Assembly (NCBI GenBank): GCA_964604015.1
Contig: CAZRXF010000012.1
Location: forward strand, 137,955-201,954
Direction of reading: 5' to 3'
Source of the DNA: an uncultured Pseudomonadota bacterium
GTDB taxonomy: Bacteria > Babelota > Babeliae > Babelales > CAIQNR01
DNA length: 64,000 bases
This document shows, one piece after another, positions 31,621-32,469 of this stretch (position 1 is the stretch's first letter; every line of letters starts with the position of its first letter). The position numbers and the translations under genes are program-made. The notes beneath the pieces are model-generated. The model did not search any database. It was not told where the DNA came from and saw nothing but the letters and a program-made list of their open reading frames with translations.

Positions 31621-32469
31621 AGGGGTGTATTGCCACCCCTTCTTAATCCCTACTTTTTTACTCTCATCTTTCTTTTGCACAAGAAGTAAGTATGCGCTCT
31701 GCGCGCAGCACCAAGGGGGTACTTGTCTACCCCTTTGGAATCAGGACACAAACGTGCCGTTTGATCGCTTTTACGGCTCCAATCGTTCGTTGCGCCCTGT
31801 CGGTCGACAACTCAGTTCCGCCTGATGAGGAGTGACTAATGTGGGGGCTGAAAAAATTCACTCTTTCCGAATTGGAGTTGCTTTTGCCTGTGACCCTACA
31901 CTCTCACAACGTCGTCACCAGCGATACGTAGTGAGCGTCGGTGATCCAGTAGCATTGTAAAAATCATTATTGTGTCATTCCCAAAAAAGGAGATTTATCG
32001 ACCGAATGGTAGGGAAATCTTTAAGACAAATAAATGACATCTTCGATACCTCAATAAAGAGGAATTTGTTCTGTTACGTCTGGATTCCCGTACCACTTAC
32101 AGAGTCTGGTCAGAGCGCTTTGCACTCTGCTGCGACTCTGTTCGTTGGGAATGACACAAGGAAGAAATTATTCCTCATTAGGCGGAACTGAGTTGTCGCC
32201 CGTCAGGGCGCAAGGAGGATTGGAGCCGACAAGGGGTCCAGAGGAACAGCTGGTGCCCTGTTTTAAAAGGGGTGGGCAAGCACCCCTTTTACGCTTGCCC
32301 TGCGTAAGGGCATACCTACGTCTTGAACGAAAGGCGTATTTTGTGAGAGCCCACAAAAAGGGACCGCTTTGGTGCTGCGCGCAGAGCGCATACATACGTC
32401 GCGTGCAAAACAACAAGGCAGAAATGTTCAAAAGAAAGTAGGGTTTCAGAGGGGTGGCGATACACCACC
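31621..32469. repeat. Foldback repeat element, expanded copy (long imperfect inverted-repeat arms flanking a ~330-bp core)
   Basis: The left arm 31621-31838 is the reverse complement (by eye about 70-90 percent) of parts of the right arm 32172-32469. The outer ends AGGGGTGTATTGCCACCCCT and AGGGGTGGCGATACACCACC are mutual reverse complements. The left arm is about 90 percent identical to 48250-48448. Confidence 0.85.

Follow-up and report, generated by a model that had tools for sequence, protein, structure and literature searches.

The closest described systems are families of small bacterial repeats. REP, BIME and REPIN sequences of Proteobacteria are small imperfect palindromes, rich in G+C, in which the stems vary and flanking or loop bases are conserved; as inverted dimers, head-to-head or tail-tail, they can fold to one large stem-loop, and they occur also as heterodimers and with DNA inserted between the partners, always extragenic and often lying right past stop codons (PMC3733652). 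Prokaryotic MITEs (Correia/NEMIS, ERIC and Coxiella QMITE1/2) are non-coding, intergenic sequences with inverted ends and very stable stem-loops; they are often found beside promoters or 3' ends and at times hold orphan ORFs without homologues (PMC10969869). They are typically <500 bp and AT-rich, with TIRs of 4-30 bp and flanking direct repeats (PMC10969869). The pneumococcal BOX, RUP and SPRITE sequences are modular small repeats made from sub-units, which are bunched and nested in one another (PMC10969869). The stretch of DNA analysed here, referred to as the window, is 64 kb long, and at positions 31621-32469 it contains a giant imperfect foldback of 849 bp that is non-coding and shares traits with each of these families.

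The element occupies nearly all of the 1022-bp gap between the divergent genes for an HD-domain protein (30484-31548, - strand) and a PpiC/SurA-like lipoprotein (32571-33605, + strand), and the gene annotation of both flanks agrees with the position given in the preliminary description. The SurA-like gene is the first of two tandem PpiC/SurA-like (Rotamase_2) paralogues (32571-33605 and 33682-34698), a pair that is conserved in relatives. Five loci from related uncultured genomes (L014, L016, L017, L024 and L026), in which the SurA-like protein has 77-82% identity, were used for comparison. The space upstream of the SurA-like gene was 113-255 bp in all five, versus 1022 bp in the window. A divergent neighbour was present in four of them (L014, L016, L017 and L026) and was a homologue of the HD gene in L014, L016 and L017. 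Homology to the relatives in the left flank stops at ..TTTGCG (position 31620) and on the right begins again at 32475, with a block conserved at 82-85% identity in four relatives; where the window has the element, the relatives have some 75-95 nt of spacer that is not conserved. By alignment, the 849 bp was shown to be an insertion relative to the five related genomes, and since these have only 113-255 bp there, it was deduced to be a lineage-specific insertion or expansion. RING-finger (zf-RING_2) proteins are encoded in two of the relatives (L024, 3004-3624; L026, 14602-16002); because these proteins are eukaryote-like, they suggest a host-associated lifestyle, and the uncultured lineage with the repeat unit described below is probably host-associated.

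No target-site duplication was found at the outer ends, as the two flanks (..GCATTTGCG and AGAGCTGCTTTTTGC..) do not duplicate each other and each matches the relatives' ancestral sequence. On the right, the element stops a few bases short of a conserved promoter-like block of the SurA-like gene. This block contains a candidate promoter (Table 1), a site which was not flagged by the consensus promoter scan. In the orthologous spacer of L014 (GCA_040384165.1, 9857-9893), GTAAGTATGCGCTGTGCGC was found to match 31686-31704 at 18/19 positions in the same orientation. The alignment of this spacer to the outer left arm was weak (62 nt, score 36 versus a maximum of 24 in 200 shuffles), with an E of 0.1 under the nhmmer arm profile. 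Because of this match, part of the arm may be old at the locus rather than newly inserted; the match may mean either that part of the unit is old at the site or that the site is a hot spot.

Table 1. Features of the foldback element, its flank and the two other loci of the repeat family (window coordinates)
Feature	Position	Strand	Description
Left arm	31621..31839	+	One ~200-nt hairpin-rich unit; nhmmer arm profile covers 31622-31839
Terminal hairpin H1, left end of element	31621..31640	+	AGGGGTG-TATTGC-CACCCCT; fold z = -4.1
Small REP-like hairpin	31693..31707	+	TGCGC-TCTGC-GCGCA, GTAAGTA just before
Hairpin H2	31711..31738	+	GGGGTA-CTTGTC-TACCCC; most conserved motif of the family
Core, left part	31840..31969		130 nt; z about 0 on both strands; no similarity to anything compared
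Inner module	31970..32159		190 nt; perfect 15-bp inverted repeat 31970-31984 / 32145-32159, TG..CA ends
Mini-ORF	32006..32191	+	ATG at 32006, 61 codons plus stop at 32189-32191
Right arm	32172..32469	-	Inverted copy of left-arm unit; 82% identity to left arm over common span
Extra B-type unit within right arm	32290..32362	-	73 nt; 86% identity to 38810-38886, reverse orientation, E 1e-17
Terminal hairpin H1', right end of element	32450..32469	+	Near reverse complement of left outer end
Candidate SurA-like gene promoter (context only)	32481..32508	+	TTGCAA-N16-TACGTT, in conserved block
Third locus	38810..39100		B-type unit, another small hairpin unit, truncated inverted unit (H2, small hairpin, H1)
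Compact foldback	48257..48695		Left unit 48257-48453, ~25-nt loop GTGACTAAATTTAATTTAATAAAGG, diverged inverted right unit

The two foldback arms reported earlier were recovered as long inverted stretches by both repeat finding and BLAST. As single-stranded DNA, 31615-32475 was predicted to fold into one giant hairpin of -221.3 kcal/mol, versus -117.4 +/- 7.6 for shuffles (z = -13.7). In the arms, 31624-31720 pairs with 32363-32466 (79% over 105 nt) and 31716-31831 with 32172-32286 (79.5% over 117 nt; E 3e-17 by BLAST of the region against the window). The complementarity of the arms rises to 91% in the innermost 45 nt and is ~80% overall, the extra 73-nt unit of the right arm excepted. The outer ends, which had been described as mutual reverse complements, are complementary but imperfectly so: the two 20-mers, each a small G4..C4 hairpin, agree at 17/20 positions. 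From its outer end inwards, the left arm consists of terminal hairpin H1, a T-rich tract, the small REP-like hairpin, hairpin H2 and an inner module. The right arm had been proposed to be a fusion of an A-type and a B-type unit, and its composite nature was deemed real because 32290-32362 breaks the arm homology and matches 38810-38886. Two hairpins, TGCCCT-TACGC-AGGGCA and TACGTCTTGAACGAAAGGCGTA, are found in this B-type unit.

An assembly artefact was discounted because contigs from other samples carry the same core and right arm: these are alike in L012 (99.7%), and L009 has no differences to the window from position 31811 onward. The first 290 positions of L009 (sample ERZ27283008), set against window positions 31549-31810, differ: the left arm is another one (80-84% identity) and the flank to its left is foreign, while beyond this variant arm the core, right arm and SurA-like gene are otherwise identical to the window. 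L003, a further contig of the same assembly, includes the HD gene and runs only as far as 31673. For the join in L009 there are two explanations, a chimera at low coverage or another core-bearing locus that may be rearranged. Short-read contigs of the organism terminate inside the arms (at 31745 and 32368), which is the behaviour expected where a sequence is multi-copy.

The preliminary description had noted that ~330 bp at the centre of the element are missing from a compact copy of the foldback. This core was measured at 332 bp (31840-32171), stands where the compact copy has its short loop, and has no similarity to the compact copy or to any other part of the window. In L009, as in the expanded and compact copies, the left arm extends to ..GAGTGACTAA, after which the three sequences diverge. 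The core was located in the loop because the left arm runs to GAGTGACTAA as it does in the compact copy and is followed by unrelated bases. The G+C content was 43% for the core, 46% for its 130-nt left part and 50-54% for the arms, with a window mean of 44.6%. The right-hand part of the core is a 190-nt module whose nested perfect inverted repeat proved one base longer than the 14 bp first reported; by our calculation, ~5e-5 perfect 15-bp inverted repeats are expected by chance in 332 nt. The module encloses two more hairpins (at about 32008-32095 and 32099-32141), and its fold gave z = -5.9 on the + strand and -7.3 on the - strand. Around the module, the nearest thing to a target-site duplication was an imperfect AT-rich repeat (AAATCATTA / AAATTA), which was not convincing.

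Neither the core nor the 190-nt module recurred elsewhere in the window, in an extra ~14 kb of the organism's sequence or in the relatives, and for this reason the mobility of the core is putative. BLAST of the element against plasmid and phage collections gave no match, and a scan of viral contigs for the inner-repeat pair found none. Within ~78 kb of the organism and ~100 kb of relatives the core was thus unique to its locus and its mini-ORF unconserved, which the preliminary description had named as the outcome that would count against its proposal.

In these ~78 kb, which comprise the 64-kb window and the ~14 kb from contigs L027-L032, the repeat family has three loci (31621-32469, 48257-48695 and 38810-39100), none of which lies in the extra ~14 kb; the nhmmer profile of the arms found no members in the ~100 kb of relatives. 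The compact foldback is ~440 bp long, has a fold z of -8.6, and both of its arms match the profile at full length; its left arm (48270-48453) has 92% identity to 31655-31839 of the expanded copy. The third locus was recovered by the profile at 38959-39061 (E 7e-16), though it had been left out when the profile was made. Several ORFs near these loci are of separate note. The ORF at about 38470-38799 has an extremely acidic C-terminus (..EEDHEPEDDEHEEDELAEVKEEDEETEDMDEDDEDKNK) and stops 10 nt short of the third locus. Next to the compact copy lies a UvrC-like ORF (46926-48230) of only 434 aa, with a GIY-YIG and an RNase H-like domain; its listed coordinates run about 100 nt into the 5' end of clpB (44408-47026), and its TTG start is probably wrong because of this overlap. 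On the other side, at 48702-59637 (- strand), are three tandem large genes (1564, 884 and 1197 aa) without a Pfam or NCBIfam match.

The two left arms are 92% alike, while all other arm pairs are 75-84% alike, including partners within one foldback. Partner arms (75-82%) are no more alike than arms of different loci (76-92%), and the arms were therefore deduced to behave as separate copies of one unit. In both full loci (2/2) the arms stand head-to-head with their inner modules facing each other, which suggests that a dimer rather than a monomer may be the copied form, by analogy with REP doublets.

The units themselves are rich in hairpins. Nine small hairpin units were recognised, with 5-6-bp stems of differing sequence (TGCGC/GCGCA, TGCCCT/AGGGCA, CCCCAC/GTGGGG and TTGCCC/GGGCAA) and 5-nt loops of the pattern TNYGC, with GTA.GTA in front; the loop is TCTGC in the left arm and TACGC, TCCGC or TGCGC in homologous units elsewhere. 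The inner module of the unit ends in ..GCCTRATGAGGA. Hairpin H2 has the family consensus GGGGTR-CTTGYC-YACCCC, and its top stem pair covaries, being A-T, G-C or T-A. Since the hairpins persist through different stems, selection or structure-dependent copying is implied. Outside the repeat family, a 32-nt near-perfect palindrome (6884-6915, 93.8%) that may be a terminator was observed immediately past the 3' end of mnmG (- strand).

The H2 motif occurs at five sites in the window versus 0.00 expected. The exact H2-type motif RGGGGTRCTTGYCYACCCCYTT gave 4 matches in 185,579 species genomes and 6 in a metagenome collection, about the number expected by chance in sequences among which the source genome was not included. 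Among these chance-level matches, the one in L006 (an unrelated MAG, CAYUHH010000089.1, uncultured Pseudomonadota) was nonetheless identified as genuine, a distant member of the arm family (3011-3085, nhmmer E 2.8e-9). It consists of hairpin H2 and about 60 nt of the inner module and begins 10 nt past the stop codon of lepA, where the unit may act as a 3'-end hairpin. From the chance-level scans and the empty relatives, the family therefore appears narrow and lineage-restricted apart from L006, a member which hints at a unit of greater age and wider distribution than exact-motif scanning implies.

These data were interpreted, with a probability of roughly 0.6, as a non-coding mosaic of nested palindromic units, REP/BIME- or MITE-like in kind, which has taken up an insertion in its loop and is not autonomous. 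The anatomy, the membership of the arms in a repeat family and the lack of a coding signal are direct observations. The element was read as a mosaic because both the loop module and the 73-nt unit of the right arm look like additions. Two inverted copies of the ~200-nt multi-hairpin unit would have formed a head-to-head dimer, the loop of which would then have gained the 332 bp of extra non-coding DNA, while the right arm would have gained its one extra hairpin unit. Of the core, at least the right-hand 190 nt would represent an independent small palindromic element, inserted into the loop. The units may be mobilised in trans, either by a transposase whose gene lies elsewhere or by recombination or replication that depends on the hairpins, and hairpin loops may be preferred landing sites. 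The element would be tolerated by virtue of its seat in a non-conserved spacer between divergent promoters, with the conserved block upstream of the SurA-like gene left intact. An element within an element was one of the options in the preliminary description, and this option was favoured by the loop position of the core, its lower G+C than that of the arms and the separate bounds of the structured 190-nt module. Against the mosaic reading stand the single copy of the core, the missing target-site duplication, the absence of a transposase from the window, the chance-level motif scans (L006 apart), the small number of loci (three in ~78 kb) and the weak match in L014. As to the earlier interpretation as a whole, the foldback, the nested repeat, the position between divergent genes and the composite make-up of the right arm were supported, and the autonomous form and the mini-ORF as a gene were not.

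A less likely course of events, though the best placed of the alternatives, is that two separate copies of the ~200-nt unit were inserted in opposite orientation around a native spacer, with no insertion into a loop. The core, or at least its 130-nt part, would then be original local DNA, and the 190-nt module would have arisen or landed independently. The divergence of the partner arms fits independent copies, since it is as great (82% identity) as that from arms elsewhere. The 130-nt part is likewise without structure and has a G+C near the window mean, and the relatives have their non-conserved spacer at the same position. Separate insertions are nonetheless difficult to reconcile with the head-to-head arrangement, with facing inner modules, of both full loci, which is unlikely for independent events. 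The core also had no similarity to the spacer of any relative, a weak test because these spacers are not conserved among the relatives themselves.

The mosaic reading may also be taken further. The ~200-nt unit and its dimers could constitute an undescribed REPIN-like family of replicators with its own mobilising enzyme, and the 190-nt module a second novel small element, or a structured RNA, with hairpin loops as its target; this was regarded as doubtful. No transposase, including RAYT (Y1/HUH), was found within the 64-kb window. The candidate element ends for comparison with the flanks of transposases are H1/H2 and TGTGTCATTCCCAA.

It was considered improbable that the core is functional cargo, i.e., a structured small RNA from the 190-nt module or a translated 61-aa micro-protein, carried by or sheltered within the foldback. 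The module is predicted to be strongly structured on both strands, and the core shows little or no variation among three independent samples, though these represent near-identical strains. Small RNAs derived from MITEs and orphan ORFs are also known, e.g., Coxiella QMITE (PMC10969869). Against a small RNA, Rfam gave nothing in the window at the gathering score, and over 31500-32600 at E <= 5 gave only two chance matches to CRISPR repeats (18-19 bits). The consensus scan flagged no sigma-70-like promoter or terminator in the core, and with zero homologues there is no covariation or conservation in support. A tRNA/tmRNA search found none. Two further assignments were tried and rejected. A hammerhead-like CUGAUGAG in the inner arm was matched by no Rfam ribozyme model. 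A terminator role was considered for H1 and H2, both of which precede T-rich tracts, but the consensus scan accepted two unrelated sites only, no more than in shuffles.

The micro-protein was disfavoured by the properties of its ORF. The preliminary description had given a 62-codon frame preceded by a Shine-Dalgarno sequence; the ATG at 32006 and an upstream AAGGAG (31987-31992) are present, but the frame has 61 codons plus a stop, and the 13-nt spacing to the ATG is long. The frame crosses the right inner repeat and terminates 20 nt into the right arm. Its codon usage scored -0.17 bits per codon, below every in-frame 61-codon window from the genes of the window (0.28 +/- 0.12, with -0.11 +/- 0.13 off-frame). 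An ATG-initiated ORF of at least 61 codons arises in 52% of shuffles of 849 nt, and ORFs of 69, 87 and 98 aa lie in the arms as well; the longest ORFs in the 849 bp (61-98 aa) are of lengths that are routine in shuffles. Pfam gave nothing for the mini-ORF. Among 1.84 billion representative proteins no homologue was found, the search returning only two weak multi-stretch matches to long proteins (E 1e-5 and 5e-4). The product is not on record as a called gene in any assembly, and a six-frame pseudo-protein of 31600-32490 had no match at E <= 1 among 5.8 billion protein clusters. The frame was judged to be a chance ORF: it has a non-coding codon score, lacks homologues, has never been called and reads into the right arm, and thus shows none of the homologues, coding-like codons and gene calls of a small protein gene. 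It was also suggested that the expanded copy might be an autonomous element or a master copy from which the compact copy derives by deletion. It is the longest copy and has both arms at full length, but none of its ORFs is transposase-sized or matches a called protein in any frame of the 849 bp, 332 bp is too short for any known transposase, and the core and the loop of the compact copy have nothing in common. The autonomous form is effectively refuted, and a master copy is very improbable.

For annotation, the non-coding mosaic explains a 1-kb 'empty' divergent intergenic region and the breaks of the organism's short-read assemblies at this site, and it carries the caution that the 61-aa ORF should not be annotated as a gene. 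It opens no long-standing question, but it may serve as a small case study of palindromic repeats growing by nesting, because hairpins kept through different stems imply selection or structure-dependent copying.

In relation to the known systems, the element resembles REP, BIME and REPIN sequences in its small hairpins (5-6-bp stems, TNYGC loops and GTA.GTA in front) and its head-to-head dimers. The nine small units correspond to the 20-40-nt G+C-rich imperfect palindromes of REP, and inverted dimers folding as one hairpin, as in REPINs, occur in 2/2 full loci at the level of the ~200-nt unit. Unlike REP, however, the repeating unit here is ~200 nt with several hairpins rather than one 20-40-nt palindrome. 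The unpaired GTAG (or CGTC) tag of REP was seen, as GTAG, in only 2/9 small units (both B-type, in the 32320 region and at 38851), 4 nt from the stem; other small units have GTAA, GTAT or GCAT at the place of the tag, and in some GACG lies 8 nt upstream. With MITEs the element shares its non-coding, intergenic nature and its terminal inverted repeats (17/20). It differs from them in inverted arms of 219-298 bp at ~80% identity, well beyond TIRs of 4-30 bp, in arms that are G+C-rich relative to the genome and in the lack of a target duplication. The element has no coding capacity, and against the typical MITE size of <500 bp the compact copy measures ~440 bp and the expanded copy 849 bp. Longer variants of ERIC arise by internal insertions. 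The nesting of small repeats recalls BOX, RUP and SPRITE, although there is no sequence relation to these, and BOX is a tandem A-B(n)-C array where the element is a foldback dimer. IS1397/ISKpn1 and IS110-family elements, which target REP or hairpin loops, offer an example of a second element that lands specifically in a palindrome's loop; those are full insertion sequences with transposase genes, whereas the inner module is 190 nt and non-coding, and the element has no transposase ORF between its inverted repeats as an autonomous insertion sequence would. Because of the absent target duplication, the over-long arms and the inconsistent GTAG tag, membership in either the REP or the MITE group was not established; by analogy, the element nevertheless appears to work like the REP/BIME/REPIN and MITE families.
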